Shown: positions 10,192 through 33,566 of the stretch, piece by piece
How positions within the stretch are numbered: position 1 is the first letter of the stretch
How the letters are laid out: every line of letters starts with the position of its first letter
DNA from: Waddliaceae bacterium
Lineage (GTDB): Bacteria > Chlamydiota > Chlamydiia > Chlamydiales > Waddliaceae
Reading direction: 5' to 3'
Assembly: GCA_963724325.1 (NCBI GenBank)
Contig: CAVRUH010000007.1
Coordinates: 138,095 to 202,094 of the forward strand
DNA: 64,000 nucleotides
Made by a program: the position numbers and the translations under genes
The notes under the pieces: generated by a model
Told to the model about the DNA's origin: nothing
Seen by the model: the letters and a program-made list of their open reading frames with translations, nothing else
Database searches by the model: none

Positions 10192-10205
10192 GGTTAACCT
10201 TCCTT

Positions 10206-13175: not shown

Positions 13176-13217
13176 CTCATAACCCGCGGGTCACTGGTTC
13201 AAGTCCAGTTTGCCCCA
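13176..13217 (+). repeat. tRNA-Met 3'-part copy 2 (42/42 nt)
   Basis: Identical to 5029-5070. No matching 5' acceptor strand lies upstream, so it is not a functional tRNA. Confidence 0.9.
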
Positions 13218-13240
13218 CATTTTTTTTACAGGACAAACTT

Positions 13241-13627
13241 ATGACACTCATAGAATCCAAAATGGAATTTGCCGAAAGGAACCATGCTATACTTCTCTCA
13301 CTGGAGGCTCAGATTGTAGCGCACTATCAAAAACGTCCTCGCCTTCATGATCACAATGTGATTCGCGTTTTAGAGGCTCTCATAAAGCACTTTAGGGCTT
13401 TAGCGACAAATTTTCCATTGCCTCAGCATTCATTATCTGAATTCGAGGGTGAAATTTATCTTAGCATTCAATACAATCTAGAAAAAACGGAAGCCCTAAC
13501 TCCGAATGATTCCTGTGTCCTTTTAAAGTTCCTCAAAAAATCTGTAGAGCTAAACAACAAGAGATCGGGCTCACAGGGTTACTTAAACTTCATCAGCCGC
13601 TTCATCGAAGTTGAAATAGAGGATTAG
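13241..13627 (+). CDS. Conserved 128-aa hypothetical protein, copy 2
   Basis: Differs from copy 1 at about 2-3 residues (AV>AI, KSE>KTE). The longer track ORF from 13145 reads through the pseudo-tRNA and is rejected. Confidence 0.6.
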   Translation: MTLIESKMEFAERNHAILLSLEAQIVAHYQKRPRLHDHNVIRVLEALIKHFRALATNFPLPQHSLSEFEGEIYLSIQYNLEKTEALTPNDSCVLLKFLKKSVELNNKRSGSQGYLNFISRFIEVEIED

Positions 13628-18179: not shown

Positions 18180-18349
18180 ACACACACGAAGCCTCTCTTT
18201 TTATTGCATTTCCCGTGCACTGGCGGTGCAACGGTGCAGTACTTTATCCATTTTCAACCGTCAAAATTCGGTAGCAATAAATACATAAGTCATTTATTAT
18301 CTTACTCAAAGCGGTTGAGTGGTGTTGATTGGAGTGGTAGTCTTCCTCC

Positions 18350-18391
18350 CTCATAACCCGCGGGTCACTGGTTCAAGTCCAGTTTGCCCCA
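18350..18391 (+). repeat. tRNA-Met 3'-part copy 3 (42/42 nt)
   Basis: Identical to 5029-5070. The ~40 nt upstream are homologous to the region upstream of copy 2, not to the tRNA 5' half. Confidence 0.9.
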
Positions 18392-18413
18392 CATTTTTTT
18401 ACAGGACAAACTT

Positions 18414-18620
18414 ATGACACTAATAGAATCCAAAATGGAATTTGCCGAAAGGAATCCTGCAATACTTCTCTCCCTAGAGGCTCAGATTGTAACGCACTAT
18501 CAAAAACGTCCTCGCCTTCATGATCACGATGTGATTCGCGTTTTAGAGGCTCTCATAAAGCACTTTAAGGCCTTAGCGACAAATTTCCCATTGCCTCAGC
18601 AGGTGCGGTTACAGACATAG
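18414..18620 (+). pseudogene. 128-aa family copy 3, truncated after ~62 codons at an IS end
   Basis: Homology to copies 1 and 2 stops at 18601 (NFPLPQ|QVRLQT*), where the IS-end 21-mer region begins. Confidence 0.8.
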
Positions 18621-19395
18621 GTTACACTTTTATTGTTAAAATGTTATATAAAAAGCAGGGGGCAACTAGCCCCCTGCCAAAAAAACATCCGTCACCCATC
18701 GTCTCTCGGTCGCAGCGGGGAGTTTTCTTCTTGGTACCAATAATTATACTATGTATGGTCAAAAGATGCATTAGGAAAATACACAAGAAAACATCTAGAA
18801 TTTTGAGTTTTGAGGGAGCTGTGGGGGTTTCTTCTTGGTCGGGGGTTTGGGGGCTGGCCCCCAATATATTCACTTCCGATCGTTGTCATTAGCGCTGCCT
18901 CCTTCTCTTAACTTTTGGTTTTTCAAGCCCTTCCTTTACAAGTTTTCCTAAGTATATAGGTCCATAATAAACATCATATTCCCCCTGTTCATTAGCCTTA
19001 AGACCAACATATTCTCCAGTAAGCGTTTGTCCAATATAATGATCATTCTGATGTAACCATAAACAACCACTTGCACAAATCTTTCTAACAATCATTTTTT
19101 GTGTGTCGTATTCTGGTTTCCTTAAAACTCCATCCCAAGTCCGTAAGGATTTAGTATAAACACTTGCTGGTGTTTGCATATTCAAGGCTTCATGAGGCCT
19201 TTCAAAGTTATATTCGTCTAAGAATTTGCTGTTCGCTTGTATTTGCAATACAAGGGATGCTTTAGCAGGGTTTGCTACTTCTTGTTGTAGTGTAGAATGG
19301 AATCTCTCGTGCCTTCCATTTTCCTCAGGATGTCCTGGATTTATCCACTCAGGGATAACTCCAGCTTTAATTAGATTGGCGTGATTTAGTCGGAA
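18602..19395 (-). mobile_element. IS481-family element relic (end sequence plus transposase C-terminal ~170 aa)
   Basis: ORF 18889-19395: GVIPEWINPGHPEENGRHERFHSTLQQE...FERPHEALNMQTPASVY is the end of an rve/DDE core (the E region). The terminal 21-mer lies at 18611-18631. The N-terminal two thirds are missing. Confidence 0.7.
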
Positions 19396-19687
19396 TAGCA
19401 ACGTAGACAAAGTGAGGGATTTGTGTGGTGATTTCGTGATAAGCCAAAGCAGAGATCAGGCATATAATTCCGTTAGGAATTTTTTTCAAAACAAGAACAA
19501 GATCAGGCTAGGAAAAGTCTGGGATTTCAATTAGCCCATAGACTCCTCTAGCTAATTGTTCCAAGAGCCCCTCATCTCACATCTGATATAGTGTGCGTGG
19601 GTGAATGCCCAATTGGATAGCTTCACCCGAGCGGAGGAGTCCCTGGTGTGATTTAAAGTGCTTGATCGCTATCTGTTTTGCATTCAT
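19395..19687 (-). pseudogene. AbiEi-type antitoxin N-terminal fragment with an internal stop and frameshift, fused to the IS relic
   Basis: Hand translation gives MNAKQIAIKHFKSHQGLLRSGEAIQLGIHPRTLYQM*..RDEGLLEQLARGVYGLIEIPDFS*PDLVLVLKKIPNGIICLISALAYHEITTQIPHFVYVAIP, the AbiEi_4 N-domain pattern. Confidence 0.55.
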
Positions 19688-19777
19688 GGATAGTAATGTC
19701 GGTAAATGTTAACATTTTACTACATTCTTATCCATATTGCAGAGTATTCCTATGAGCTCTTACTGCCTAGAAACAAC

Positions 19778-20556
19778 TTAAAGTTCTAAAAGCTTTTTCA
19801 TAGTTTTTTCAAAATGAAGCTTACGTAGCCTGCCAGAGGGGTCTTGCGCTTCCAATTTAACCCAGTCATTTGGAGAGGCATTGTCAAGCCAGATTCGTAG
19901 ATTTTTCTGAAGAGTTTTAAACCATTTCGGATGCTGTTTTGCCAATACGTTGAATTCAATTAGAGCCCGATCAGAAAAATCGCCTAATTGGGAAGTGACA
20001 TACCAAATACCATAAAGATCCTTAAGAATCTTTAAAGCACTTTTGCGTTTCGTAAAAGTAAGCCCCTTATGGAATATCCAAGCACCTGGTGTAACTACAT
20101 TTCCTGCAATGTTTGAGTGGGTATGAAACTTTATGGTTGTCTGCAAGCTTAAGGTTAAATAGCTTAGCGGTTGGGCAACCACACCAGCAATGACGACATT
20201 TTTATTTTTGTTTTCCTGACTAGAGTCATCCGTCAAAAATTCAATTTCAATTTCAGCGCCTGCAATTTCCTTCACATAGGCTTCTGTCGCAGGATCTCTA
20301 AATCTTTAAAAACATGATTGAAACCTGCTTCTCGAAGATAATTTTGAATGTTCTTTTTCGAAATTTGTGGGATTTTCCTTGGAATAAGAGAATCGATATC
20401 TCTTGTTCCTACTGGAGGGTTCTTTAATTTTGGATCAGCTAGATAAAGCTTGTAGATAAAGAGTGCAAATCCACCTCCAATGACGATAAAATCTCGCCAT
20501 GGACCAATAGATTCTAAAAATTCTGAAATGATTTTGTCTTCTTGATTAGATGTCAT
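19778..20556 (-). pseudogene. Nucleotidyltransferase-fold toxin-like gene (GSU2403/AbiEii-like), split by a frameshift near 20272-20275
   Basis: The two ORFs (94 + 165 aa) would together make one ~260-aa protein. IVIGGGFALFIY...GTRDIDSLI is the NTase G[GS]...D-x-D motif. Lies downstream of the AbiEi-like gene. Confidence 0.55.
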
Positions 20557-21285
20557 GACGATTTACCACTTTTATAAATACGCTTAAGCTCTGGAAGACG
20601 TTCTGCCATAAATTCTGCTTGTTCTTGTCCACGTAAAGGAAAGTGATATAAATCCAAAAAAGTCAAAATAGAAGGAGAGACATTGATATCTAGATTTGAG
20701 TCAGAAGCATGCTTAAGCAAGCTTTTGTAGTAAGGTTCTATAAGCAAAACTTCATAGCCTCTTTCTTGAGGTTCTAATAGTAGCTTTTTCTCAAGTTGTG
20801 GTCTAACCAAAGGATCAAGCAGGTATAGTTCAAGAGTGTTTAAGTTGGTGTTTTTATATCCATGCGCTTCAGCAGCAGAATGAAGAGCCAATGCTACCTT
20901 ATTGCTTAGATTTGACTTTTTAATTGCCTCTAAAAGCTCTGCTTTATCTTGGAACCCAGAACGATAAGTTCTCATTTTGCATTTTTTTACGATGCTGTAA
21001 TGTTCTAGCCAGCTTTCAAGAAGGCGTTTGGGATCTTTCAAGAAAAACTTTTTGGCGGTTCTTATTCCTTCGGCTTGCAAAATTCCTTTTAAAACTAAAG
21101 TCCCAAAGACGCGTTGTACTGATCCAAGACTTACCCCAGCTTCTTTAGACACATTTCGCACGGATAACTCTCGACTCTTTGATGCCTTCTCTCAGCAACC
21201 AATCAAGAACCACGGCAGATTTGTCCGAATAGATATTCCCTTCCACAGGTTTTTCATTCGAGCCTATCAAAAACCGACCTTCCAT
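20553..21285 (-). pseudogene. AbiEi-like antitoxin/transcriptional regulator, frameshifted near its N-terminus
   Basis: GGAGG plus ATG at 21285 opens MEGRFLIGSNEKPVEGNIYSDKSAVVLDWLLREGIK. The frame then shifts (~21165-21190) into ...SRELSVRNVSKEAGVSLGSVQRVFGTL... 4-nt overlap with the NTase gene. Confidence 0.5.
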
Positions 21286-21310
21286 ACGACCTCCTTATCT
21301 GTTCATTATT

Positions 21311-21354
21311 TTATACTGTTCAATATTTATGGAACAGTATAAAATATGGAACAG
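21311..21354. promoter_or_regulatory. Operator-like inverted repeat in the divergent intergenic region
   Basis: TTATACTGTTC (21311-21321), N10, GAACAGTATAA (21332-21342), plus a third half-site GGAACAG (21348-21354). Lies between the AbiEi-like start (21285) and the HEPN gene start (21397). Confidence 0.45.
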
Positions 21355-21396
21355 CGAATATTAACGTAAAAAGTTTAAAGAAACAAGGAGAGTCTA

Positions 21397-21939
21397 ATGA
21401 CGAACACAACAAATTCTTCAAGTCAAAAACAAATCAGAATGCCAGTACCTGTCGATTCCTTAATCACCATTCTACATAATATACAATTGAAAATTGATTC
21501 AGCTGCTGGCGCTGCAACAGCGCTAGAGCTCCGGCTGCGAATTATCGCTCAGATAGAAGAGAAAGTTCGAGATGAACTAAAGAAAAATACAAAAGACCCT
21601 TTTCATCAGGCAACTCTTAAACATCTCATTTCAGCAGTCCTTGAGGTATTTCAAGATAAACTTGATGCAACCGAGCAAAGTATAATAAAACAATGCCGCC
21701 CCCCTCGCAATAAAACTGCGCATGGCAGCTTTGCTGAGTTAATGATCGAACTGGCAGGGGAGGCTTCTGGTAGACAGCTTGATAATCGCACATTGAAACC
21801 ATTACCTTTAGCAGAAGATGATATAATTGAAGGAGCAATATGCATTGAGAGAAATGGTGGTTTAGAGGATTTTTCAAAACTTGCAAACCGTGCAGTATCA
21901 ATTCTTGAAGAAAAAATTATACGCCATTTAAAACCTTAA
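21397..21939 (+). CDS. HEPN-domain protein candidate (R-N-x3-H-G motif)
   Basis: 180 aa, predicted helical. CRPPRNKTAHGSFAELM (R104-H109, nt 21706-21723) fits the canonical HEPN RNase motif R[NSHDK]xxxH. Confidence 0.5.
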   Translation: MTNTTNSSSQKQIRMPVPVDSLITILHNIQLKIDSAAGAATALELRLRIIAQIEEKVRDELKKNTKDPFHQATLKHLISAVLEVFQDKLDATEQSIIKQCRPPRNKTAHGSFAELMIELAGEASGRQLDNRTLKPLPLAEDDIIEGAICIERNGGLEDFSKLANRAVSILEEKIIRHLKP

Positions 21940-22210
21940 TTGTAATTGTAAAATGACTCATCATCAATCGGACCTATTGAATGGCCCAATGCTGATTGTC
22001 CTCATGATAAAACCATTGTCATTTTTCAACTTTTGCATACGTTTTTATCATTTGCAGATCATGCAAAATCCGTGGACCACTGGTGGGCCAAATAGGGGCA
22101 GCAAGTGGCATGAAATAGTATCAAATTGGCTTGGACGAAAAGGGCTTTTCGCTGTATAGTGGTTGATGTCAGCTACTGTATGTTGCGGTGGTTTATTAAC
22201 AGGGGATGGC

Positions 22211-22252
22211 CTCATAACCCGCTGGTCACTGGTTCAAGTCCAGTTTGCCACA
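22211..22252 (+). repeat. tRNA-Met 3'-part copy 4 (40/42 nt)
   Basis: CTCATAACCCGCTGGTCACTGGTTCAAGTCCAGTTTGCCACA. About 140 bp upstream are homologous to the region upstream of copy 5 (for example GGACCA..GGTGG.CCAAATAGGG). Confidence 0.85.
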
Positions 22253-22273
22253 CTTTTTTCTGTGTTGGAATTC

Positions 22274-22660
22274 ATGATTTCTAAAGTGAAGAAAATATTC
22301 ATTATTTTGTATGCCCTCCCGAACCCTATTGTGGACACTGAAGAAGATCGATGCAATTATGTAATTACAAAGTACATATTTGCATTCTTCATGGTTGTAG
22401 GTAGTATTTTAACATCCTATATGATGGCTGATTTAATAAATGAATTGGTTCCGTTAACATTAATAAAAATTAAAATTATGGAAATTATTTCAGTGTCCAT
22501 ATTGACTGTTGGAGCTTGGGGGAGTCTTAGATGGCCAGCACAAACTACGAAAATAAAGTCCCATGCAGAAGATTTTGACGATTATATTTCGAGGATATTC
22601 TCTTTTTGTGGTTTTTTGATGACCTTGGTTTCATATCAATTAGTCCCCAATGATTTGTAG
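22274..22660 (+). CDS. Small membrane protein (hypothetical)
   Basis: Start set at MISKVKKIF downstream of the tRNA fragment. 3-4 hydrophobic segments. No motif. Confidence 0.35.
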   Translation: MISKVKKIFIILYALPNPIVDTEEDRCNYVITKYIFAFFMVVGSILTSYMMADLINELVPLTLIKIKIMEIISVSILTVGAWGSLRWPAQTTKIKSHAEDFDDYISRIFSFCGFLMTLVSYQLVPNDL

Positions 22661-23002
22661 GTTAATTAGTATATTCTTTAACATAGATTATGCTGGATGA
22701 TCATAAAAAGGGTCATAAAAAAGAGAAAAGAATGTGGTCAGGCCTGCACATTTTGACCCTATTTGGATCTTGCAGCAAGTCATGAGGTGCCCAAGCACTA
22801 TCTTTGCCACTACTCCAAGAAATAAGAGTTTTTCTACTCATCATAACTCACAAAAACTTCCGATGGAGAATCTTCCATCTTCATAATTTAAAAGCGCATA
22901 TCCATCCTTGGCATTAGTAACTCAAGGGGGCATATGCCCTTACTTGTTACCGTTACTTATATATAAAATGTATATTAATTAGGATATATTTTTATAAAAA
23001 AA

Positions 23003-23950
23003 TTATCCCCAATAACAATTTTTTTTACTAAATTGCTGGTTTACAAATTTTCGACGTAATTTCAGGTTGACTGGTTTGGAGCCCATGTCTTCAATAAAAT
23101 TCATAAAATCTTTCATCCATCGTGAACACATTCCTTGAGGTGTATGTTTCATATAATCCCAGCTTTTATAAGCTGCATGTAAAGTATGAAAAGGACGAGA
23201 GGCTTGATGTTTTCTCTGTCCGCTTCCTTTTCGTTCACTGAGTCCTAATTTCACATAATCATTATTAGACATGCCAACCTTGCAAGTTTTAATTTTATCT
23301 AAATTCTCAATAACCCATTTGATGCCTTCTCGTTTCAACCATTCCGCTGCTTTACTTCGCGTGATTCCCCATCTTTCAGCCCATCTTGCAATTGTTAAGT
23401 TTTCACCATTATGTGAATAGAAAATACATCCTCTTTTATTATCGTTTTGGTTTTTTACCGAAGCCCAACGACAGTTATCGGGAGAATATCCTTTATTATT
23501 GTCGATTCTATCAAGAGAGGTGTTTTCAGGTTTCATTCCCATATCCAATAAAAAATTATCAAAGGATCCTGTATCCCGATGCCATCGGTCACAAACGTTG
23601 ATTCCACGATCGACATAATTTTTCTTTTCTTTAATTGTTTTACCTTCGCATCGACGATGCATATAGTGCCAAGCCATATACGTTTTGTAATTAGGACTAT
23701 TTATAGCACAGCATCCATGTGTTCTTCTAGGTCCCCCAAGTAAAGTTTGAATTTTTTGGGAGCACTCATCACAACACATGGTCTTAAAAATTTGCGCACT
23801 ACTTTTAGTACGTAGTTTCCCGCAATTACAACGAATAATATATTTTCGAGTGCGTCCTACCACTCCAAGCAACTGAACAACAGTCCAATGATTGATGCAC
23901 TGGCCAATAACAATCTTTTTATTTTGCTTATTTTGTATTGATGACAGCAT
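23003..23950 (-). CDS. Phage/MGE-type HNH-like DNA-binding protein with an N-terminal Cys cluster
   Basis: 315 aa. CNCG...CCDEC zinc-ribbon-like cluster. YMAWHYMHRRC...DRGINVCDRWH...FDNFLLDMGMKP...LDRIDNNKGYSPDNCRWASVKNQNDN, plus a degenerate second repeat. I associate this pattern with phage HNH-like proteins. Confidence 0.5.
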   Translation of the reverse strand: MLSSIQNKQNKKIVIGQCINHWTVVQLLGVVGRTRKYIIRCNCGKLRTKSSAQIFKTMCCDECSQKIQTLLGGPRRTHGCCAINSPNYKTYMAWHYMHRRCEGKTIKEKKNYVDRGINVCDRWHRDTGSFDNFLLDMGMKPENTSLDRIDNNKGYSPDNCRWASVKNQNDNKRGCIFYSHNGENLTIARWAERWGITRSKAAEWLKREGIKWVIENLDKIKTCKVGMSNNDYVKLGLSERKGSGQRKHQASRPFHTLHAAYKSWDYMKHTPQGMCSRWMKDFMNFIEDMGSKPVNLKLRRKFVNQQFSKKNCYWG

Positions 23951-24025
23951 TGATTATAGTTTTTTGTTTGTAAAATGATTGAATTCAAGAAATGGCCCGA
24001 AGATCTCGAACCAAAAAAGCTTATC

Positions 24026-24613
24026 TTAAAAAGGTAAACGACTTTGATAAGGATCACTTTTAGCAGATTCGAAAGACTGATTATAATTTGGAGAATACTC
24101 AAAAATATTATCTTGATCTTGCTGTGTTTTTAAAGCTTCAATAATCAGCTTGTAAAAACTTGATAGTTCCTTTTCGATTTTAATTCGAAAATGCGACTTT
24201 GTCTCAATTAGAGGTTTGGATTGAGATAGAATTGATTTTCCATCTTCGTATCTTTCAAGAATTTTTTCTCCATCAGCATACTTGAAAACTTCGCTTTGAG
24301 TAACATAGACGTTATAACTAAAACGATATTCAGTCTTATTTTTTCCCCATACTATGCAATGATCTGTATGTCTTATGAATTCGTCCTGATAAGGAAATTT
24401 TTCCGTTGAATTTGGTCTTACAAATCTTGTTTTTTCAGATGAAAAAACATAAGTAAAGGTAAATGGAATACCTGCTGTTTTCAACCTTTCTTCTAATGCT
24501 TTAATGTCATTAGAAATACGGTCCAAATCTTGAAGATGATTAGAAATTACGGAGTCCGCTTCAGAATTAAGTATTTGAAGGGAGGTTGATACAAAAGATT
24601 TTGTTGATGTCAT
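24026..24613 (-). CDS. Hypothetical protein
   Basis: 195-aa ORF co-oriented with the HNH-like gene 75 bp downstream. No motif. Confidence 0.45.
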   Translation of the reverse strand: MTSTKSFVSTSLQILNSEADSVISNHLQDLDRISNDIKALEERLKTAGIPFTFTYVFSSEKTRFVRPNSTEKFPYQDEFIRHTDHCIVWGKNKTEYRFSYNVYVTQSEVFKYADGEKILERYEDGKSILSQSKPLIETKSHFRIKIEKELSSFYKLIIEALKTQQDQDNIFEYSPNYNQSFESAKSDPYQSRLPF

Positions 24614-24937
24614 AATATAAATCCTTAAAATTTGTGAATTTTATTTTTTTTAATAATTACACAACAGTGCAATTACCCAGATTCAACCTTGGTTTTTCAT
24701 TCAAGATTCAGGATTCCAATTCAAGGAAAAGCCCATTCAAGGGTTTAAAACAAACTGCTATCAAGCAGTTAATGAGAATGACTTTAGCAAACATTATAAT
24801 TACATACAAGAAAAAAGAAAATTGTTGTCGGTGTTCGAGTTATTTGGCTTTCGAGAAATTTGCATTAATATGCACATGCTAAGTTCATTTATTTCCTTCT
24901 ACTGCCTTACCTTCAGAATCTATAAAGATAAGGGGGG

Positions 24938-24993
24938 CAGGCTTGGCATGCGGACATTTGATCGGGATCAAATGTCCGCATGCCAAGCCCGAC
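24938..24993. repeat. ~55-bp palindromic intergenic repeat, copy A
   Basis: GGCTTGGCATGCGGACATTTGATC-GG-GATCAAATGTCCGCATGCCAAGCC, followed by CGACTCTTTTTT. Family members lie at 38458-38512 and 42925-42975, with a half copy at 37646-37668. Confidence 0.85.
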
Positions 24994-25247
24994 TCTTTTT
25001 TCTACTGATCATTAAGAGAAATATTGTCTTTAACTTCTTCATATTTATTTTCAGCTTCAACAAAAATTATTTAAACAAGTCTATAATTTGATTTTTTGAA
25101 ACTTTCATGATAAGATTTTAAAAAATAACATCGGAAAATTCAATACAAATACTATCAAAAGCATCTTGCTTTTGGCTTTATGATTTTTTGTATGTTTTGA
25201 AATATGAGTACCCGCTTGACTTAATTGGGCACCTGACTAATTACCAA

Positions 25248-26354
25248 TCACGATGTACATAGCGTAAGAGGGATTAGGTCCGTATAAGCAACCATCTCTT
25301 TAGGAGAAATGTAGTTGTGCGCAAAAAAATCGGTTGATGCCGCATTTCTTTTCTCCGCATTATCATTATTTTTTTGAGGAATTGGGATTTGATTGTACGC
25401 TTGAAATGCCGAAGGCTCAAGCAACAGCATTTTGATGACTGAAATGCGAGAGATTTCCAACAGATCAAACAAGTCTTTAATTTCGGGTGTCTTCTCCTGG
25501 CGGATCGAGGACCCCGGGAAAGAGAGGTCTTTGACATACCCATGGAGGCCTGGAGGTCTATGGTCATCCCAAATAGCCTTTAGCCTTGCCTCAATCTCTT
25601 GTGAAGTGAAAGATTTTCCATTTATAGCAGAGGAAGTATTTGCTAGGAATGATCCTAACCTTGAAGCAACTCGATTAGCATGATGACGACTAGGATTGCC
25701 CACCAAAGCGTCAAGTAAAGGAAACAGCTTGGAAAAAGAGGAACTCGCATAGTGCAGGCGCTCCCAGATTACCGCTTCAAAAAACAATTGTAATGTTAAG
25801 TATGGGCGTGGCATGTGTTGACGTTGTTCAAGACAGTTTAGGATGAGAGGAAATAGTTTACCTGCCAGTGAGAAATCCTCTACTTCGTACTGTAGCAAGG
25901 GTTTGCCATTGACATCATGTGGAAAGAAACTGTCAAGACAAACATTAGTGCGATGGTTGATGTGGTTTGTTTCATGACCCAATAGCCCATCTTCCAGTGT
26001 ACCGTATGTGAAAGATCCTCCGATTACCATACGAATAGGTTTTGCCAAGTGTAGTGCACCCAGCATGGCCCAACCATAACGCCGAGCCCTCTCAACGGAA
26101 AGAGAGGAGTCAACCTTAAGACATGCATGACATTGATCCATTCCAAGCCCATGTCCAGGGTAAACCCATGCACCTAGTCCGACATGGCGTTCTGGTGGGG
26201 AACCTGGGTGAGCTCCATGTACCACGGCGTGATATGGGGTTGAGGCTAAGTAGATGCCGGAAGAAAGAGGAATTGGCAATTGGCGATATAATTCGCCTGC
26301 TATTGGGAGGTGCGTGAAGAGAAAGTAGTGGTCGCCGTGTTGTGGTTCTTTCAT
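25248..26354 (-). CDS. Orphan 368-aa protein, visibly GC-richer than its flanks; weak HEPN-like R-x4-H-G near the C-terminus
   Basis: Long ORF with clean coding appearance. AIWDDHRPPGLHGY (R266-H271), preceded by helical blocks. No firm family assignment. Confidence 0.55.
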   Translation of the reverse strand: MKEPQHGDHYFLFTHLPIAGELYRQLPIPLSSGIYLASTPYHAVVHGAHPGSPPERHVGLGAWVYPGHGLGMDQCHACLKVDSSLSVERARRYGWAMLGALHLAKPIRMVIGGSFTYGTLEDGLLGHETNHINHRTNVCLDSFFPHDVNGKPLLQYEVEDFSLAGKLFPLILNCLEQRQHMPRPYLTLQLFFEAVIWERLHYASSSFSKLFPLLDALVGNPSRHHANRVASRLGSFLANTSSAINGKSFTSQEIEARLKAIWDDHRPPGLHGYVKDLSFPGSSIRQEKTPEIKDLFDLLEISRISVIKMLLLEPSAFQAYNQIPIPQKNNDNAEKRNAASTDFFAHNYISPKEMVAYTDLIPLTLCTS

Positions 26355-26475
26355 GATTTTATTCCGTCTGCTGGTGTTTTTCTAGTGTTTTGAGTCCTTA
26401 TAAGAGCCATGCCTAAGATCCTTCAAAGTTTATATTTGCAAATGACTCAATGATGTTTGAAATCATAACATGTAT

Positions 26476-26504
26476 TTGCATAAAATTGCAACATATGTTA
26501 TAAT
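26476..26504 (+). promoter_or_regulatory. Sigma70-like promoter of the XRE-Panacea/toxin operon with an embedded palindrome
   Basis: TTGCAT (26476-26481), 17-nt spacer, TATAAT (26499-26504), 24 nt before the ATG. The palindrome AACATATGTT (26490-26499) overlaps the spacer and the first base of the -10. Confidence 0.5.
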
Positions 26505-26528
26505 AAAAAGAAACAGGGGATTGTGTTT

Positions 26529-27320
26529 ATGGAAACATCTTTAGGTAAACGAATAAAAGCCTTGCGTGAGGCTCTGAGAATAAGCCAAGAGGAATTATCG
26601 CAAAGATTAGCATTGGATAGAGCTTCGCTGTCTTTAATCGAAAATGACAAACGCTCATTGAAAGCTGATGAACTTATTTTACTATCAAAATCTTTGAATA
26701 TTTCGATTGATGAGTTGTTAAATCTCAAGTCGTCAACAGAAGTTATTTTGGAACAGGCTCAGAAGCCAAAAGAAAAAAGAAATGACTTACGGATTAGCGT
26801 TCCAAGAAAAAACCTGAAAAAGTTTAAGGAAGTTCTTCTCTATATATTGGGAAAGGTTGGAGCAAAACCAAATGTGGGTGAAACTGTCTTGTATAAGCTG
26901 CTGTACTTTATAGATTTCAACTATTACGAGAAATATGAAGAACAACTCATTGGAGCCACATACATCAAAAACCATCATGGCCCTACCCCAATCGAGTTTC
27001 AGTCCATTGTAAATGAGATGATAGAAAACAAAGAAATCGAAGTTGTGAAAAGTAAATATTTTCAGCATCTCCAAAAAAAATATCTACCTCATCAAGAACC
27101 CGATCTTTCTGTCTTTAATGCAAATGAGATCAAAGTGATAGATGATGTGTTGCAAAAATTATCTGGCATGAATGCTTCAACAATAAGTGAATACTCTCAT
27201 CAAGATGTCCCATGGATGGTCACATCGGAAAGGCAAAAAATTGATTATGAATCTGTATTTTACCGAACCCCTGCATATAGCGTAAGAGAGTATAGCAACG
27301 ATGAAATTCAAGCACATTGA
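26529..27320 (+). CDS. XRE-family HTH fused to a Panacea (DUF4065/SocA-like) antitoxin domain
   Basis: N-terminus LGKRIKALREALRISQEELSQRLALDRASLSLIENDKR (HTH_XRE). C-terminus GETVLYKLLYFIDFNYYEKYEEQLIGATYIKNHHGPTPIEF (DUF4065 signature). Confidence 0.75.
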   Translation: METSLGKRIKALREALRISQEELSQRLALDRASLSLIENDKRSLKADELILLSKSLNISIDELLNLKSSTEVILEQAQKPKEKRNDLRISVPRKNLKKFKEVLLYILGKVGAKPNVGETVLYKLLYFIDFNYYEKYEEQLIGATYIKNHHGPTPIEFQSIVNEMIENKEIEVVKSKYFQHLQKKYLPHQEPDLSVFNANEIKVIDDVLQKLSGMNASTISEYSHQDVPWMVTSERQKIDYESVFYRTPAYSVREYSNDEIQAH

Positions 27321-27669
27321 GCAGCTAGATAAATTCAAGAAAGATCTAAAAAAACTCCTTAAAAGATTTCCCAGTCTTGAGGAAGATTTAGACTCGCTTG
27401 TGAAAGCACAATTGATTGCTTATCATAAACTCAATGTCGACAATCATGGCATCTTTGCAATCGAAAATCTTGCAATTCAAAATCCTAAAATTTTTAAAGT
27501 TAAGAAGTTTGCTTGCAAATCGTTAAAAGGAAAAGGTGTTCATTCTGGTATTCGCGTCACATATGCATATTTTCCAGTTGAAGACAGAATAGAGTTCATC
27601 GAGATCTACTACAAGGGTGATCAAGAGAATGAGGATAGAGAAAGGATCAAAAATTATTATATAAAATAA
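27301..27669 (+). CDS. RelE/ParE-superfamily-like toxin candidate
   Basis: 122 aa, overlapping the antitoxin gene by 20 nt. KSLKGKGVHSGIRVTYAYFPVEDRIEFIEIYYKGDQEN resembles the KGKSGGYRVIYY...IY.K..ENL core of RelE/HigB-like toxins. Confidence 0.5.
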   Translation: MKFKHIEQLDKFKKDLKKLLKRFPSLEEDLDSLVKAQLIAYHKLNVDNHGIFAIENLAIQNPKIFKVKKFACKSLKGKGVHSGIRVTYAYFPVEDRIEFIEIYYKGDQENEDRERIKNYYIK

Positions 27670-27793
27670 CCTATGCTTTTAAAATATTAGCTATTACTTT
27701 AAATCACCTAGTAAGAAAAGGATTAAGTCTAGAAGAATGGAGATCTTTAAGGATGCAGTACTCTGTATAATCCATTGATATTGGATTCCATTA

Positions 27794-29542
27794 TTAATTT
27801 ACATTGTACGTAAATTCTACCGATTCCTTTCTTCTTTCATCTTTTGGGACATAAGTTTTTAATAGATTTCCGAGTAAATTTCCTTTTTTAATCTCATAAG
27901 TTTTAAAATAACGATTAACACGTTGTTTATTAGCTCCCCAATAACTACCAAAACCATCGGGTTGATTAATCCAATCCCAATCTTTCTTTTGGACCATGCC
28001 GGTAACTCCTGAGGAAACATTATTTTCAAGAAATGGAATATGACGGAAATTCATATATTCTGTATCAATAAAGTAAATTCCTTCTTCACCTTGCGAATCC
28101 CTTCCTAACATGAAATTGTCGCCAAGAAAGTCTCCAAAACCGGTTGCTTCTAATATTTTGAGAAATTCAGTGACTTCTTCTCTTGTAGTGCCTCGTTCCA
28201 GAGGAGTGATATTTTCCGCAAAAATAGTTACTTGATCGGAAGTTAATTCTAAATTGTAAGGACTTACTACTGCAGGAACAGAAGTGATTCCTTCATTCAA
28301 TACAGCAATTTTTTTGGGAACCTTAATATGTTTTAAGCCTAGCTCCTCAGCTATTCTTTTTATGTAATTTGCCCCTTGAATTCTACCTAAGTCCCTTCCT
28401 TTATCCCAATAAGCTCCCTTAGGATGATTTTGATCAACAAATTCCTGCTTAGTCAGCAACCTACCAGATTCTCTTAAATCTTCAAAAAATTCTATTCCAA
28501 TTTGTTGAACCTCTTCATTGCTCATAGAATGTCTAAAAATACTAGGTCCTAGGGTCCTCTGTTCTATTTTTGTGCGCAATTCAAGATTTTTATGAGGACA
28601 TTTCTTGTTAAGCGCTTGAATGAAGTTTGTTTCAAGAATAAGGGCCTTCTCAATGATTTTTTCATTGACCGCATTGAATGAATTCGCAGTTTGAGTAAAA
28701 TTAAGTATTTGAAAAATTATAGATTCACTAAGACCATCATAAAATCCTCGAATCTCTTCTTCTGTAACTTCTTCATTCTTGATGATGGCTATTAATTTTT
28801 TTGTATTTTGCTCCTCTTCAAGGCGACCAGTATCTTCTTTAAGCCAATTTAAAAATTCTGGATTTGTTAATTCGTCAACTGGTTTAGGCTCTATCTTAAC
28901 ACCAACATTTGAAGGAACAAGATTTGACGAATTTTCTTTTGCTTCCGGTTCTTCAACTTTCTTTAGATATTCTTCATCTCGTTCCCTTGCTTCGTTTTCA
29001 AGTTCGGACTTTCTTCTTTCTTCTTGAACCCTTAGTGCCTCTTCGCGTTCATTTTTTAAGTTTTTGAATGCTGACCGAGCTAAGTGACCCCTAAATAGGC
29101 TTTGAATTTTTGTTGCGGCGATGTTTTTTGTTTGTTCTGTTGGTTCGTTAATCTTTTCCTGTGAAGATATGTCATTAATATTTTGATCTAAGGAAGAATT
29201 AGAGGGTTGATCATTGGAAGGAATAGAAGATTCAAGCAGAGCAAAACGAATATTTTCTTTAGACTTAATAAATAGGTTTCTTATGGATTTTGAGAAGAGT
29301 GCTAAACATAAGGTGCATATGACAGCAACAGTTCCCAATAATCCTCTTCCAAAATGTTCTAAACCGGAGAAGGCGCGTTCTCTTTTTTCAATAATGCGAT
29401 ATTGACGACCTTTATAATCAGAGCATACTCTATGTCCTTTTTCATCAACGAGTCTATTCGTGCTGTTAAATTTCGTCGCTAAAACCCATTTATCACTAAG
29501 GCTAATTTCGTTTATTATGCTAATTATTTTAAACCCTGGCAT
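27794..29542 (-). CDS. Membrane-anchored protein with a perfect IQ motif, a coiled coil and a kinase-like C-terminal domain
   Basis: 582 aa. TM GLLGTVAVICTLCLALF. IQSLFRGHLARSAF (nt 29066-29107) fits IQxxxRGxxxRxxF. Glu/Lys-rich coiled coil. C-terminal GFGDFLGDNFMLGRDSQGEEGIYFIDTEY resembles the catalytic D..N / ID.E of Kdo/RIO-type atypical kinases. Confidence 0.6.
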   Translation of the reverse strand: MPGFKIISIINEISLSDKWVLATKFNSTNRLVDEKGHRVCSDYKGRQYRIIEKRERAFSGLEHFGRGLLGTVAVICTLCLALFSKSIRNLFIKSKENIRFALLESSIPSNDQPSNSSLDQNINDISSQEKINEPTEQTKNIAATKIQSLFRGHLARSAFKNLKNEREEALRVQEERRKSELENEARERDEEYLKKVEEPEAKENSSNLVPSNVGVKIEPKPVDELTNPEFLNWLKEDTGRLEEEQNTKKLIAIIKNEEVTEEEIRGFYDGLSESIIFQILNFTQTANSFNAVNEKIIEKALILETNFIQALNKKCPHKNLELRTKIEQRTLGPSIFRHSMSNEEVQQIGIEFFEDLRESGRLLTKQEFVDQNHPKGAYWDKGRDLGRIQGANYIKRIAEELGLKHIKVPKKIAVLNEGITSVPAVVSPYNLELTSDQVTIFAENITPLERGTTREEVTEFLKILEATGFGDFLGDNFMLGRDSQGEEGIYFIDTEYMNFRHIPFLENNVSSGVTGMVQKKDWDWINQPDGFGSYWGANKQRVNRYFKTYEIKKGNLLGNLLKTYVPKDERRKESVEFTYNVN

Positions 29543-29824
29543 TTTTCACCTAATTGATTACAAGTTAATGACTTTAAAGAAAATTGTAACAGATTAGATA
29601 ATTTAAATCAAGACCAAACTTCTACACCTCTACGCCATGAATGGCACTTTGTGACCAACAGGTTTAATCTGATAAATGTAAGAATTGGACCAACGGTGGA
29701 CCAAATAGGGACATCAAATTACATGATATCAGATAAAATTAGAATAGACTGAAAAGTCTTGAGGCTGCTATCTTGATTTATGTCAGCTCTTGTAGTAAGC
29801 GATAGTTTGAGGATCGCTGACAGA

Positions 29825-29866: not shown

Positions 29867-30212
29867 CTTTTTTACGGTACACACTTATGATACCCATAGA
29901 ATTTGCCGAATAAATCCCTAAAAAATATGCGACCGGTTCAGCACAGGTTTCATCTCATTTCACAAGATTTTCGGATGCATCAACATACTATTGAATTTTT
30001 ACTTTACAGCTTTACTCTGCTATTTATGTGAATCCAATAAACATCGTCTGTCTGGATAAAATAAATAATTTTGATTCTGGATTTTTCACAGCGCATGTGT
30101 TGGAGTATATGGAAATTTCAAATAAAATCTCCGTCTAGACATGGAATAGTTTTAGTATTATAGTGAGTAAATATGTTATCGTAGAACCTTTAGTTTTGGA
30201 GACCTTGTGGCA

Positions 30213-30656
30213 ATGAAGAATTACAGAGTTGAATTTATTGATAAAGTTTCTGAAGAATTAAAGAAAATAGTGCTTGAAGGTTTTGGCCGTCACTCTATCG
30301 AAATGACAGGGCATGATGAAAAATTTGAATCTGTTGCTTTTGTGGCCTATAATGGTGATAATTTTGCTGGAATAATTGAAGTTGTTTTATTTTGGGGAGC
30401 TCTTCACATCAAAAAAGTTTATATAAATGAAGACTGCCGCGGGCAAGGACTTGGCAATAAACTAATGGAACTTGCTTGTGGATATGGTCGGGAAAATAAA
30501 TGTCCATTCGCATTCGTTGAAACGATGAGTTTTCAAGCACTGGGTTTCTACCAAAAAAATGGGTTCCAATTAGAATTTACTCGTCCTGGATATTCACATG
30601 GATGCTCATTTCATTACTTAAAAAAAGACCTTATGGTACACCTACGCTTCATTTAG
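30213..30656 (+). CDS. GNAT-family N-acetyltransferase
   Basis: INEDCRGQGLGNKLMELA (motif A R/QxxGxG/A) and FYQKNGFQ. ATG at 30213 preferred over GTG at 30207. Confidence 0.8.
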   Translation: MKNYRVEFIDKVSEELKKIVLEGFGRHSIEMTGHDEKFESVAFVAYNGDNFAGIIEVVLFWGALHIKKVYINEDCRGQGLGNKLMELACGYGRENKCPFAFVETMSFQALGFYQKNGFQLEFTRPGYSHGCSFHYLKKDLMVHLRFI

Positions 30657-30868
30657 CTTGCATACGACCCCTTCTGATTTTGCAAAGATCTATTAATCGA
30701 CTGGGAACAATTTGATACTTGCAGTAATGACGCTGCCGACAATGAGTTTCTTGCCAACTGGTGGAAAAACTATGCTCTCTGATAAAATTATGAAAACAAT
30801 CTTACACGAAGAAAAAGAGACCGATGTCAATCAGAGATATGAAAGTAAATAATTATATGGTTTAGGAA

Positions 30869-31282
30869 ATGCGCAATATGAAACAAATAAATCGCTACGG
30901 TGCCTATGGGATTGTTCTAGTGGATTCGAAAATTCTGCTTACTCAAAAAAGAGGAGGCCCATACAAAGGGCTATGGGATTTGCCTGGAGGTGGTATTGAG
31001 TTTGGCGAGTCCCCTGAAGAGGCTCTTCGGCGTGAACTACATGAAGAGGCAGCATTGACTGCAGATGAGGTCCATCTGTCAAGAGTCATAACCTTCAATG
31101 GAAAATACGATAATGACGGTGAAGAATATATTTTTCACCACATCGGTCTCATCTATAGCGTTTTGAATGTAACATCAAATCCAAATCTAATGCCCGAAGA
31201 AGAATTGCGATGGGAGGTGCCAAGGAATATCGACAGGGAAGAGCTAACGCCGTTTGCTAAACAAGTAATAGAAGGCTTGTAA
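30869..31282 (+). CDS. NUDIX hydrolase
   Basis: Nudix box GGGIEFGESPEEALRRELHEEAAL. Confidence 0.85.
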   Translation: MRNMKQINRYGAYGIVLVDSKILLTQKRGGPYKGLWDLPGGGIEFGESPEEALRRELHEEAALTADEVHLSRVITFNGKYDNDGEEYIFHHIGLIYSVLNVTSNPNLMPEEELRWEVPRNIDREELTPFAKQVIEGL

Positions 31283-31433
31283 CATTTCGATGCAGAAGTC
31301 ATGGCACGCATATGGAACAGTTCGGCCCTATAAATCTAACCAAGTCTCAGCTTTTGCCTGTTGAACTTTTGCAACCCTTCTGATATCCTATTGCTGAGAA
31401 CAGTTAATGACTATTGTAAAGTATTGGAAATAA

Positions 31434-31469
31434 GCGGCCTCATAACCCGCGGGTCACTGGTTCAAGTCA
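31434..31469 (+). repeat. tRNA-Met 3'-part copy 6 (partial; 35/36 nt, ends inside the T arm)
   Basis: AGCGGCCTCATAACCCGCGGGTCACTGGTTCAAGTC versus tRNA AGCGGACTCAT...; diverges after GTTCAAGTC. Confidence 0.8.
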
Positions 31470-31494
31470 AAACCACTTTAAGAAGGAAGATATT

Positions 31495-31977
31495 GTGAAG
31501 GATTACACACTCATTCAAAAGCCCCCCATAAATGTAATAGGAATCGAATGCAGAACATCAAACGCTCCTGAAGATGGCCCTCAAGACATCCCAAGCCTCT
31601 GGGGACGATTTTATAGCGAAGATATCATTAATAAAATTCCAAACAAAGCCTCTAATGAGGTCATAGCTCTCTACTGCGATTATGAAGATGATTACACAAA
31701 ACCTTATTCACTAGTAATAGGATGTTCTGTGACTTCCTTAGACAATATTCCCGAAGGAATGGTAGCCAAAATAATTCATGCTGGATCATATGCTCTTTTC
31801 CGTGCCATTGGAGAATACCCTGCAAGCTTGATTGAAACTTGGGGAAATATTTGGCAAACTGAATTGAAGCGTACCTACACCGGTGATTACGAATTTTACG
31901 GAGAGAAGTTCAGCTCTGGATCACTCCAGGAAGTTGAAGTATTTATCGCTGTTGAAAAAACTTTTCTGGGGAATTAA
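31495..31977 (+). CDS. GyrI-like/AraC-effector-binding small-molecule-binding protein
   Basis: 160 aa, GTG start with AAGGAAG upstream. VIGIECRTSN...LWGRFYSE...YSLVIGCSV...AGSYALFRAIGEYPASLIETWGNIW...YEFYGEKF is the typical Cass2/GyrI-like pattern. Confidence 0.7.
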   Translation: MKDYTLIQKPPINVIGIECRTSNAPEDGPQDIPSLWGRFYSEDIINKIPNKASNEVIALYCDYEDDYTKPYSLVIGCSVTSLDNIPEGMVAKIIHAGSYALFRAIGEYPASLIETWGNIWQTELKRTYTGDYEFYGEKFSSGSLQEVEVFIAVEKTFLGN

Positions 31978-31979
31978 CT

Positions 31980-33505: not shown

Positions 33506-33566
33506 ATCTGATCCTTGATTTGAAATAAATCATTTGTTAATATTTGTGGTTCATAGGCTATCATAT

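Follow-up and report, generated by a model that had tools for sequence, protein, structure and literature searches.

ApeA, which Gao et al. reportedly described in 2020, is said to be a single-protein HEPN anti-phage defence. The protein has about 560 residues, as judged from the residue numbers given for it, and comprises an N-terminal domain (residues 1–198), a Mid domain (199–309) and then the HEPN domain (10.64898/2026.01.26.701840). An Abi2/Swt1-like clade of HEPN proteins is also described (Anantharaman et al. 2013, PMC3710099). Among toxin–antitoxin (TA) systems, HTH-PanA antitoxins, which carry a Panacea (DUF4065) domain, are paired with mRNA-interferase-type toxins in PanAT modules (Kurata et al. 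2022, PMC8832971). Type IV TA or abortive-infection systems of the AbiE class combine the antitoxin AbiEi with the nucleotidyltransferase toxin AbiEii. Environmental chlamydiae carry plasmids with TA systems, and plasmid genes are often integrated in their chromosomes (PMC7846284), which weakens the premise of an initial annotation of this DNA that such genes are unexpected in an obligately intracellular organism.

Here we analysed an 8-kb stretch of a chlamydial chromosome that lies within a window of 64,000 nucleotides, the whole stretch of DNA that was examined. This 8-kb stretch is likely to be a mosaic of independent TA and nuclease-like genes from mobile islands, not one new defence system; it probably represents ordinary conflict cargo of mobile elements plus one probable new HEPN family. 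The new item is an unannotated protein of 368 residues that probably carries a C-terminal RNA-cutting HEPN domain. The stretch would consist of five or more modules, each selfish or conflict-related, independent of the others and at its own stage of decay, and the biochemical activities proposed below for its genes are predictions from sequence. Every gene listed in the initial annotation lies where it was placed, and the description of the region as rich in toxins, nucleases and regulators, like a defence island, is apt: toxin, antitoxin and nuclease-like genes are dense within an array of islands bounded by tRNA sequences. In relatives, the same modules adjoin defence-type genes (SIR2_2, helicase-methylase, AbiEii, DUF5677 and AAA_14/DUF4143). 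The intact genes of the stretch are under purifying selection, with dN/dS values of 0.04–0.24. Values of 0.10–0.19 for the three uncharacterized intact genes mark them as real genes and not as relics.

Probable island remnants bounded by tRNA fragments

The window contains a tRNA-Met gene (4997-5071), the 3′ half of which is repeated at 13170, 18344, 22205, 29819 and 31433, giving five fragment copies. The fourth, att-like copy (22205..22240, + strand; repeat family D7) is 86% identical to the tRNA and is the boundary between two island remnants. The stretch would thus hold the cargo of two adjoining, integrase-less remnants of integrative islands (18379-22205 and 22240-29819), both bounded by tRNA-Met 3′-fragment copies in the chlamydial chromosome. 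Because five integrases from related loci, used as tblastn queries, found no integrase remnant in the window, support for the island model comes from the tRNA fragments and from synteny with relatives. In one related locus (L005), the orthologous block of the 368-residue protein and PanAT genes sits in an integrase-bearing island that adjoins the same tRNA-fragment sequence.

An open reading frame (ORF) with three hydrophobic stretches (22163..22660, +; taken from the ORF list) had been described as a membrane ORF just after the fourth fragment copy, and actually overlaps it. The first third of this ORF is translated tRNA fragment, and only that part matches other loci. The ORF forms a singleton cluster at 90% identity, and its shorter start variants are absent from the protein collection. 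Probably, either the real start lies downstream or the ORF is spurious.

A candidate HEPN protein of 368 residues

The 368-residue protein (25248..26354, − strand) was assessed by means of its homologue family, an AF2 model, motif conservation and GC content. The gene is GC-richer than its surroundings, as had been noted (45.6% versus 37.1% for the window), and it is not the orphan that it was taken to be: its homologues fall into 24 clusters when grouped at 90% identity and into about 80 at 50%. The model (pLDDT 86.6, pTM 0.88) comprises an N-terminal alpha/beta domain (residues ~1–135) and a C-terminal helical domain that carries a nearly invariant R266-x4-H271, plus E300 and R303. Among 49 family sequences with a mean identity of 25%, only eight columns are at least 90% conserved, and R266, H271 and R303 are among these. 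Distant members read Y..RNxLAHG and LHEIxRL. In the model, R266 terminates helix 251–265, after which come a loop and helix 290–310. The nearly invariant Rx4H motif thus stands at a helix end, as in HEPN RNases, and we read the protein as HEPN with moderate confidence.

Distant family members give sporadic weak matches to HEPN_Apea (1.1e-3), PADLOC ApeA (7e-3) and Csx1/Csm6 (2e-3), with one member weakly matching the PADLOC ApeA model and two matching Pfam HEPN_Apea. The protein of the window itself has no significant HEPN match in Pfam, NCBIfam, PADLOC or PHROG, or in the PDB by profile. A Foldseek search with the confident model yielded nothing at E<0.001 in the PDB or BFVD, and HEPN structures (sacsin and Csm6) appeared only at ranks 42–44, with E values of about 5. 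When the family was compared by hhalign with that of the 180-residue HEPN candidate described below, the two motifs were aligned, without significance.

Similar to ApeA, the 368-residue protein is encoded by a solo gene in variable or mobile regions and combines a C-terminal Rx4H domain with an N-terminal region that lacks annotation. However, it has two domains rather than the three of the longer ApeA, and the copy in the window shows no significant sequence or fold match. By analogy with ApeA-type proteins that combine a sensor with HEPN, this single-gene module would be an RNase effector in which the novel N-terminal alpha/beta domain would sense or regulate. The family occurs on mobile elements, such as one with integrase, excisionase and copper-resistance cargo, and one homologue resides on a 20.09-kb circular contig (55-nt terminal overlap). 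Immediate neighbours of the homologues are DnaB_C, AAA_14/DUF4143, ankyrin or DUF5677 genes, uncharacterized genes or housekeeping genes.

Predicted toxin–antitoxin modules, intact and decayed

An HTH(XRE)-Panacea antitoxin of the PanA type (265 residues; 26523..27320, +) matches PF13274 with E=1.6e-19 (71 bits) and HTH_3 with E=1.6e-11. Its gene, which has a dN/dS of 0.05 and belongs to a 60-member cluster at 90% identity, overlaps by 20 nt the gene for a 122-residue toxin candidate (27301..27669, +). On the basis of homologues and a PDB profile search, this candidate is placed in the RelE/ParE superfamily as HigB-2-like. It has 1926 homologues, some given a RelE name by JGI, and a dN/dS of 0.04. 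Both genes are also kept together in another assembly. Thus, the initial annotation of an intact XRE-Panacea/RelE-like pair holds for its intactness and for the Panacea and HTH domains, which score far above cut-off, whereas the RelE-like call is marginal: the best PDB match is HigB-2 at E=0.02, over the motif KGKG..G.R.IY...IY.K.

As in PanAT modules (PMC8832971), the Panacea domain is preceded by an N-terminal XRE HTH, and the pair forms an antitoxin-first operon of two overlapping genes with a small, basic candidate toxin of the RelE/HigB-2 type. Unlike in PanAT, none of the Pfam toxin models is matched by this candidate at threshold, and the HigB-2 match is its best link. Going by what is known of the family, this would be an intact type II PanAT in which the HTH-Panacea antitoxin would bind and neutralize a HigB-2/RelE-like mRNA interferase and repress the operon, and the module would stabilize the island or abort infection.

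Two further modules, of the AbiE type, appear to be dead. Direct reading of the sequence reveals an AbiEi-type antitoxin relic (19367..19687, −) that retains only the N-terminal part, has two in-frame stops (TGA and TAG) and ends after about 107 codons. Beside it lies an insertion sequence (IS) fragment encoding 173 residues of an rve_3 integrase core (18889..19410, −; from the ORF list; PF13683, E=3.7e-15), which overlaps the 3′ end of the relic and is just outside the start of the stretch. A 40-residue ORF in the relic matches, by tblastn, genes named ‘type IV TA AbiEi family antitoxin’ on 120 plasmids. The other module pairs an AbiEi_2 regulator/antitoxin pseudogene (20553..21285, −; PF09952, E=4.2e-8) with an NTP_transf_8 nucleotidyltransferase pseudogene (19778..20556, −; identified by a weak PF12281 match and by alignment to intact homologues). 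The frameshift in AbiEi_2 maps to a 1-nt insertion at ~21181, which leaves a 202-residue ORF and a 46-residue N-terminal fragment (intact homologues have 243 residues), and a 1-nt deletion at ~20297 splits the nucleotidyltransferase into ORFs of 94 and 165 residues (intact homologues in L002–L004 have 257–265). Neither indel is in a homopolymer. The 94-residue N-terminal fragment clusters with 95- and 79-residue products of other assemblies, and the N-terminal fragment of AbiEi_2, too, shares its cluster with products of other assemblies that are similarly short.

The in-frame stops and single-base frameshifts bear out the earlier description of AbiEi and nucleotidyltransferase relics; each gene of the pair would have been killed by one such frameshift. 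As in type IV AbiE systems, the AbiEi-family gene overlaps the downstream nucleotidyltransferase gene by 4 nt. However, the nucleotidyltransferase here is NTP_transf_8 (PF12281) and that of AbiE is AbiEii (PF08843); furthermore, both paired genes are frameshifted here, and of the second AbiEi copy only a fragment with stops is left.

Other nuclease-like and uncharacterized genes

An intact gene for a Swt1/Abi2-like HEPN candidate of 180 residues (21397..21939, +) has a dN/dS of 0.14. The protein matches HEPN_Swt1 (PF18731) with E=3.3e-5 and 24.6 bits, below the cut-off of 27.5, and its Rx4H motif R104-N-K-T-A-H109 (RNKTAH) does not vary among homologues down to 60% identity; these two features support the candidate of the initial annotation. 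As in the Abi2/Swt1-like clade (PMC3710099), the protein is small, helical-looking and island-borne, and its best Pfam match, HEPN_Swt1, spans RNKTAH; in contrast to that clade, its score is below the gathering threshold and it lacks its own MNT-type partner. A 59% homologue has no AbiEi_2 or nucleotidyltransferase gene beside it and comes after an ORF that resembles a tyrosine integrase by eye. Intact and solo, the 180-residue protein would be a latent RNase.

The initial annotation of an HNH-like protein (315 residues; 23003..23950, −) is supported by matches to PHROG ‘HNH endonuclease’ families 3377, 374 and 8790 over two stretches (1e-37 to 1e-41) and by similar proteins in 884 phage records, where they are annotated as HNH or homing endonuclease; there is no match in Pfam, NCBIfam or PADLOC. 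An N-terminal Cys-rich stretch is followed by a core domain, which is partly repeated at the C terminus. In these strong profile matches the protein resembles the free-standing HNH/homing-endonuclease genes of phages. It differs from them in its location in a bacterial island, in the missing Pfam HNH match and in its core, where the translation reads LDRIDN in place of the ‘DH’ of the His-containing motif, so that the HNH histidine is absent. With the catalytic histidine lost, the gene would be mainly DNA-binding or selfish.

A co-oriented gene that ends 75 nt before the HNH-like gene encodes 195 residues (24026..24613, −), has a dN/dS of 0.17–0.18 and is followed by a terminator-like hairpin. 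Its family comprises 28 clusters and appears to be restricted to chlamydiae, in that the few source-named members are chlamydial. The AF2 model (pLDDT 72.5) predicts a long helix, a beta-meander and a helix, with no fold match in the PDB; the protein has no family match. In other loci, what comes after the gene is either an unrelated 406-residue gene or a DUF2779 gene in convergent orientation.

Independent genes or a multi-gene system

The intact uncharacterized genes might act together in a multi-gene defence system, or several, not described before, for example with the HNH-like and 195-residue proteins as nuclease and sensor, or with the 368-residue protein acting alongside the XRE-Panacea/RelE-like pair or under its regulation. 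Both pairings are adjacent and compact, and each is seen again in one or more other assemblies. The intergenic region of 168 bp from which the 368-residue and PanA genes diverge has promoter-like sites on either strand; such sites are no more frequent than in shuffles. However, when neighbourhoods in relatives were compared, the uncharacterized genes showed no conserved association with each other. The pair 23003+24026 is kept only in L012, L013 and the identical L035 (70–79% identity), and no HNH-like partner was found around the 56% and 49% homologues of the 195-residue gene. Similarly, the set 25248+26529+27301 is kept only with an 84% orthologue: the 368-residue gene has different neighbours at 77%, and its pairing with Panacea is lost there and in all 43–48% homologues. 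The trio of the 180-residue HEPN, AbiEi_2 and nucleotidyltransferase genes is broken up at 59% identity. All recurrences are in close relatives (70–92% identity), where shared synteny is expected. Also against a joint system are the hairpin after the 195-residue gene and a strong palindrome between this gene and the 368-residue gene, which is a 65-nt repeat element (24939..25003; family D11) with a second copy at 38458-38522. Furthermore, PADLOC finds no known system and matches only an HTH domain. The neighbourhood data largely refute a multi-gene system, which we regard as very unlikely. The suggestion that the three uncharacterized genes are novel effectors or sensors survives for the 368-residue protein, a plausible new HEPN effector, but not as a mutually associated set.

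Chlamydia-specific intact genes, namely the 195-residue gene and possibly the 368-residue gene and the membrane ORF, could instead encode host-directed effectors secreted into amoebae, as likened to other variable-region genes of environmental chlamydiae. The only source-named member of the 195-residue family is from a Parachlamydia metagenome-assembled genome, there is no fold or family match to narrow down what this protein does, and eukaryote-like genes are nearby, including, in the window, an ankyrin protein and an IQ-motif protein (27794-29542) and, in L020 and L026, the ankyrin proteins that adjoin 368-residue homologues. This role is unlikely given that integrases, primase-helicases and resolvases accompany both families, that the 368-residue family reaches non-island chromosomal contexts with housekeeping genes (L032–L034), and that its invariant Rx4H looks catalytic. 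The 368-residue protein might also help to maintain a chlamydial mobile element or belong to its backbone (as an accessory of replication, partition or transfer) and not be an RNase toxin. Its gene is directly 3′ of a DnaB_C/AAA_25 helicase-like gene in L006–L008 and precedes a 68-residue gene, RHH-like by eye, in L006–L010 and L027, and the circular element shares backbone genes with the integrase/excisionase element. We consider such a function quite unlikely, and an RNase effector remains our preferred reading: genes flanking the 368-residue gene are not conserved across the family, the gene is found alone in chromosomal contexts and persists in the window without replication or transfer genes and, with no NTP-binding or DNA-binding signature, the conserved core of the protein is the Rx4H motif.

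Intact genes in a tRNA-fragment array

The window carries one tRNA-Met gene (4997-5071, found by ARAGORN and Rfam), the 3′ half of which is repeated at 13170, 18344, 22205, 29819 and 31433. The feature under study (19395-27669) covers the end of the segment at 18379-22205 and most of the segment at 22240-29819, both of which are bounded by tRNA fragments. The first fragment copies (5029-5328, 13176-13475 and 18349-18648) include the first part of the 128-aa gene downstream of the tRNA, at 98% and 76% identity, and thus growth of the array duplicated flanking sequence as well as the att core. When five integrases from related loci served as queries, the window yielded no integrase remnants. By exact look-up, its proteins fall on a contig of 561,902 bp, and the protein clusters of the window include members named 'Parachlamydiaceae bacterium'.

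All of the ORFs listed in the initial annotation are present in the sequence, and its treatment of the intact unknowns as real genes rather than relics is borne out by low dN/dS values (0.10-0.19). Specifically, pairwise comparison with orthologues gave values of 0.14 for a 180-aa HEPN candidate (HEPN-180; 21397-21939, plus strand), 0.17-0.18 for a 195-aa protein (24026-24613, minus strand), 0.10-0.19 for a two-domain 368-aa protein (25248-26354, minus strand) and 0.24 for a 315-aa HNH-like phage-type protein (23003-23950, minus strand). The lowest values belong to the HTH-Panacea antitoxin PanA (26523-27320, plus strand; 0.05) and the 122-aa toxin candidate that follows it (27301-27669, plus strand; 0.04). 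Judged by these ratios, the intact genes are functional, not relics. One placement needs correction: the small membrane ORF described as lying just after the fourth tRNA-fragment copy (22163-22660, plus strand) overlaps that fragment. It forms a singleton cluster and has no usable match in PADLOC, NCBIfam, Pfam or PHROG.

A rare chlamydial protein family with a candidate HEPN domain

The 368-aa gene is GC-richer than its surroundings, as first described (45.6% versus 37.1% for the window), and its GC3 is 40% versus 19-33% in neighbouring genes. It is not the orphan that it was taken for. Relatives that are 42-88% identical to the query form 24 clusters at 90% identity, and a profile search returned 80 matches (E ≤ 1e-3) among 1.84 billion representatives; the family is therefore rare. 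All genome matches belong to Chlamydiota or to unclassified MAGs, and a tblastn search of PLSDB plasmids gave no match. One homologue is carried by an integrase/excisionase element with copper-resistance cargo (loci L006/L007). Another resides on contig CAZOAX010000005.1 (20,142 bp; L026/L027), the ends of which share an exact 55-nt overlap such that circularizing restores the full gene. This contig is probably a 20.09-kb circular element, and it has backbone genes in common with the integrase/excisionase element. In several mobile elements (L006-L010 and L027) the 368-aa homologue is directly followed by a conserved 68-aa gene (MKDAVRLSFDISAAEHATLK...) that by eye has the look of a ribbon-helix-helix protein and has no counterpart in the window.

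A confident AF2 model built with 23 sequences (pLDDT 86.6, pTM 0.88) shows an N-terminal alpha/beta domain (residues ~1-135) and a C-terminal helical domain. In the latter, a helix at 251-265 ends where an R266...H271 motif starts, followed by a flexible loop and a helix at 290-310; extra helices occupy 203-217 and 225-236. An alignment of 49 sequences averages 25% identity; just eight of its columns reach a conservation of 90% or more, R266, H271 and R303 among them. A distant subgroup reads Y..RNxLAHG and then LHEIxRL. HEPN proteins are described as all-alpha domains whose Rx4-6H motif lies where helix 3 ends or the loop to helix 4 begins, and with inserts typically between helices 2 and 3 (PMC3710099). 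By our own mapping of the helices, made without superposition, the motif and the extra helices of the 368-aa protein sit at these described positions (PMC3710099).

The 368-aa protein has no match in Pfam, NCBIfam, PADLOC or PHROG, and three versions of the family profile (the close set, the 49-sequence set and the C-terminal domain of the distant subgroup) found nothing meaningful in the PDB. A designed repeat protein in the PDB (1.3e-3) was dismissed as a low-complexity artefact. Foldseek comparison of the model with the PDB and BFVD returned nothing at E<0.001, and single-sequence PDB searches with five proteins likewise gave nothing. When the 368-aa and HEPN-180 families were compared by hhalign, the motifs aligned, but at a probability of just 0.4%. 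A few distant members weakly match HEPN_Apea, PADLOC ApeA and Csx1/Csm6, and three match MauJ at ~0.04-0.08. On balance, we favour the view that the C-terminal domain is a divergent HEPN RNase domain, while allowing considerable room for error. In HEPN RNases the active site is composite and lies where the two subunits of a dimer meet.

In ApeA, non-HEPN domains make a ligand pocket that turns on tRNA cleavage (10.64898/2026.01.26.701840). By analogy with ApeA, we read the N-terminal domain of the 368-aa protein as a putative sensor or regulator. Membership of the ApeA family itself was rejected on size, domain count and model matches: ApeA has three domains (N, Mid and HEPN), whereas the window protein has two within 368 aa and does not match the PADLOC ApeA model, which is matched by only one of 49 relatives (7e-3). 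The newness of the family, as we read it, lies within the HEPN superfamily, in an unmatched N-terminal domain and a lack of existing annotation. A bolder proposal, which we hold only tentatively and consider rather improbable as a whole, is that the family constitutes a new class of single-protein HEPN RNase effectors, carried on plasmids and integrative elements of Chlamydiota, whose N-terminal fold, absent from the PDB, would sense infection or stress. Together with the solo HEPN-180, such a class would show that obligately intracellular chlamydiae keep abortive-infection-type immunity or element-addiction toxins active against their own phages and plasmids.

If the HEPN reading is true, the 368-aa family would enlarge the set of single-gene RNase effectors by a compact sensor-plus-HEPN architecture whose N-terminal fold is unmatched, and would provide a concrete, testable handle on the conflict systems of environmental chlamydiae. 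To our knowledge, experimental data on such systems in these organisms are almost absent.

HEPN-180 and decayed AbiE-type genes

HEPN-180 matches HEPN_Swt1 with 24.6 bits (E=3.3e-5), below the cut-off of 27.5, and has no sequence match in the PDB. Its RNKTAH motif (R104-NKTA-H109) does not vary among six homologues, which reach down to 60% identity. Four loci show the gene, at 92-98% identity, divergent from a pair encoding AbiEi_2 and a nucleotidyltransferase (NTase). A 59% identical homologue is instead preceded by an ORF resembling, by eye, a tyrosine integrase gene and followed by a gene for a 256-aa membrane protein, of which no remnant is present in the window.

The decay of the AbiEi and NTase genes, noted at first reading, is real and proceeds by in-frame stops and by one frameshift per gene. 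The relic at 19367-19687 (minus strand) translates as an AbiEi N-terminus with in-frame TGA and TAG codons; an rve_3 IS fragment overlaps its 3′ end, and its 40-aa ORF has matches on plasmids that carry an AbiEi antitoxin annotation. The AbiEi_2 gene (20553-21285, minus strand; PF09952, E=4.2e-8) and the NTP_transf_8 gene (19778-20556, minus strand) are, indels aside, 81-95% identical to intact homologues of 243 aa and 257-265 aa. Each carries a single-base indel (+C at ~21181 in AbiEi_2 and -T at ~20297 in NTP_transf_8), both outside homopolymers. The N-terminal fragments of both proteins cluster with comparably short products of other assemblies, and because such products recur, the frameshifts are probably not assembly errors. 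An AbiEi-family regulator is shared with AbiE (type IV toxin–antitoxin) systems, whereas intact frames and the cognate AbiEii toxin (PF08843) are absent; the downstream NTase instead matches PF12281 (NTP_transf_8). These AbiE-type modules are dead.

An alternative considered is that the NTase could be an MNT-type antitoxin of HEPN-180, as in type VII toxin–antitoxin systems. We rejected this reading because the 59% HEPN homologue lacks an NTase, and because HEPN-180 is intact and conserved here despite a frameshifted NTase. HEPN-180 and the 368-aa protein may both be latent RNases, predicted to cause growth arrest once triggered.

In two relatives, an intact NTase/AbiEi_2/HEPN trio adjoins large defence-type genes. 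Those beside the trio in L002 (1-7889) encode a 1236-aa SIR2_2 protein and a 1264-aa helicase-methyltransferase, and in L003 (1-7844) a 2074-aa Pkinase-DUF4011-AAA_11/12-MTES_1575 protein is encoded.

A Panacea antitoxin with a putative RelE/HigB-2-like partner

The antitoxin half of the annotated 'intact XRE-Panacea/RelE-like pair' is unambiguous: PanA scores 71.3 bits with PF13274 (cut-off 25.7; E=1.6e-19) and also matches HTH_3. Its gene overlaps that of the 122-aa protein by 20 nt, and the pair also occurs in L005 (92% and 90% identity), the one independent context examined. The RelE/HigB-2-like label for the toxin candidate is only of marginal significance. A profile of 23 homologues matches HigB-2 in the PDB at E=0.02 over 41 residues; one homologue each matches the Pfam models RelE and YafQ (0.11) and ParE (0.38), and some carry a RelE name in JGI. 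Across Pfam, NCBIfam, PADLOC and PHROG, the sole match of the 122-aa protein is a weak one to a PHROG of unknown function. From what is known of PanAT toxin–antitoxin systems (PMC8832971), the HTH-Panacea protein would bind the toxin and repress the operon, such that island loss or an expression block would free the toxin to cleave mRNA.

In the 168-bp intergenic region of the divergent 368-aa and Panacea genes (26354-26523), both strands have promoter-like sites, one of them TTTGCA-18-TATAAT with an extended TG; the HTH antitoxin may conceivably co-regulate the two genes. Across the region as a whole, such sites show no excess over shuffles.

The HNH-like and 195-aa genes

Profile matches link the HNH-like protein to PHROG 'HNH endonuclease' families (1e-41), and 884 phage records contain similar proteins, but none of the HNH models in Pfam matches it at E<0.01. 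Its core, by translation, reads SLDRIDNNKGYSPDNCRW (with LDRIDN within), placing Arg where the consensus of HNH_3-type proteins has His. Unlike an HNH (His-Me finger) endonuclease, it appears from this reading to be missing the catalytic histidine. The gene is most likely a selfish passenger of the homing-endonuclease type, with doubtful nuclease activity.

The 195-aa protein belongs to a family of 28 clusters, the sole source-named member of which is chlamydial. Its AF2 model, of moderate confidence (pLDDT 72.5), has a beta-meander between a long helix at the N-terminus and another helix at the C-terminus. Foldseek found nothing in the PDB at E<0.001, and identities as SSB/PriB or a capping protein were rejected (TM <0.3). 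PADLOC, NCBIfam, Pfam and PHROG hold nothing usable, PLSDB plasmids gave no tblastn match and IMG/VR contains no family members. Homologues in mobile contexts accompany a primase-helicase, a resolvase and integrases. That the protein is a host-directed effector is a live alternative in view of the chlamydia-only distribution of the family and the eukaryote-like neighbour genes.

Independent cargo with shared island ancestry

The initial annotation raised the prospect of an undescribed system, and named conserved association of the unknowns in other genomes as its test. This test fails in the neighbourhoods of relatives. The HNH-like gene follows the 195-aa gene only in L012 and L013 (70-79% identity) and in the identical short contig L035; downstream of a 49% identical 195-aa homologue lies the gene for an unrelated protein of 406 aa, and a 56% homologue faces a convergent DUF2779 gene. 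Similarly, only in L005/L019 (84%) does the 368-aa gene stand divergent to the Panacea pair. Its 77% homologue neighbours ankyrin and DUF5677 proteins, its 43-48% homologues neighbour DnaB_C, AAA_14/DUF4143, uncharacterized or ankyrin proteins, and a very distant member stands alone amid housekeeping genes. In L005, the island that carries the block of 368-aa and Panacea genes also has an integrase, adjacent to the same tRNA-fragment sequence, and a T5orf172 (GIY-YIG-like) gene occupies the place held in the window by the HNH-like gene. Nor did PADLOC recognize a known defence system: one of ten proteins matches, the Panacea protein, and through its HTH domain only.

Gene neighbourhoods thus indicate that the modules are independent cargo whose co-occurrence reflects shared island ancestry. 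We advise against treating the stretch as a single candidate system; its gene pairs speak for that ancestry, not for function. Most parts are further members of familiar kinds. The dead AbiE-type modules, set against HEPN and PanAT genes under strong purifying selection, show which modules are still useful, or addictive, once an island has lost its integrase. Chlamydial plasmids are already known to carry toxin–antitoxin systems, and their genes to pass frequently to the chromosome (PMC7846284); a cluster of conflict genes in an environmental chlamydia is therefore no major surprise.

Other clusters and repeats in the window

The first island segment has another conflict-like cluster (9184-12925), in which the gene for a nuclease-like protein of the PLD family (PLDc_2, 7.5e-45) is accompanied by co-oriented genes for uncharacterized proteins of 319 and 340 aa and by a divergent gene for a protein with a 2H-SAK phosphoesterase domain. 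After the fifth and sixth fragment copies, 30207-34508 holds GNAT, NUDIX, Cass2/GyrI-like (integron-associated) and SDR genes and one for a 313-aa Macro-domain protein, a small-molecule or ADP-ribose-related run.

The window has two copies (24939-25003 and 38458-38522, 91% identical) of a near-perfect 65-nt palindrome, GGCTTGGCATGCGGACATTTGATC|GGGATCAAATGTCCGCATGCCAAGCC, with a T-run behind it; it resembles a REP- or MITE-like element or, alternatively, a terminator shared by both sites. Two minus-strand genes in tandem at 51604-53457 are paralogues (261 and 287 aa) with repeat blocks of 77-90% identity in common, which points to a local duplication. Finally, repeats of 99-100% identity ~4 kb apart (59053-59517 and 63060-64000) flank ORFs at 59153-60100 and 63072-63953; an insertion sequence is probably present here in two copies.
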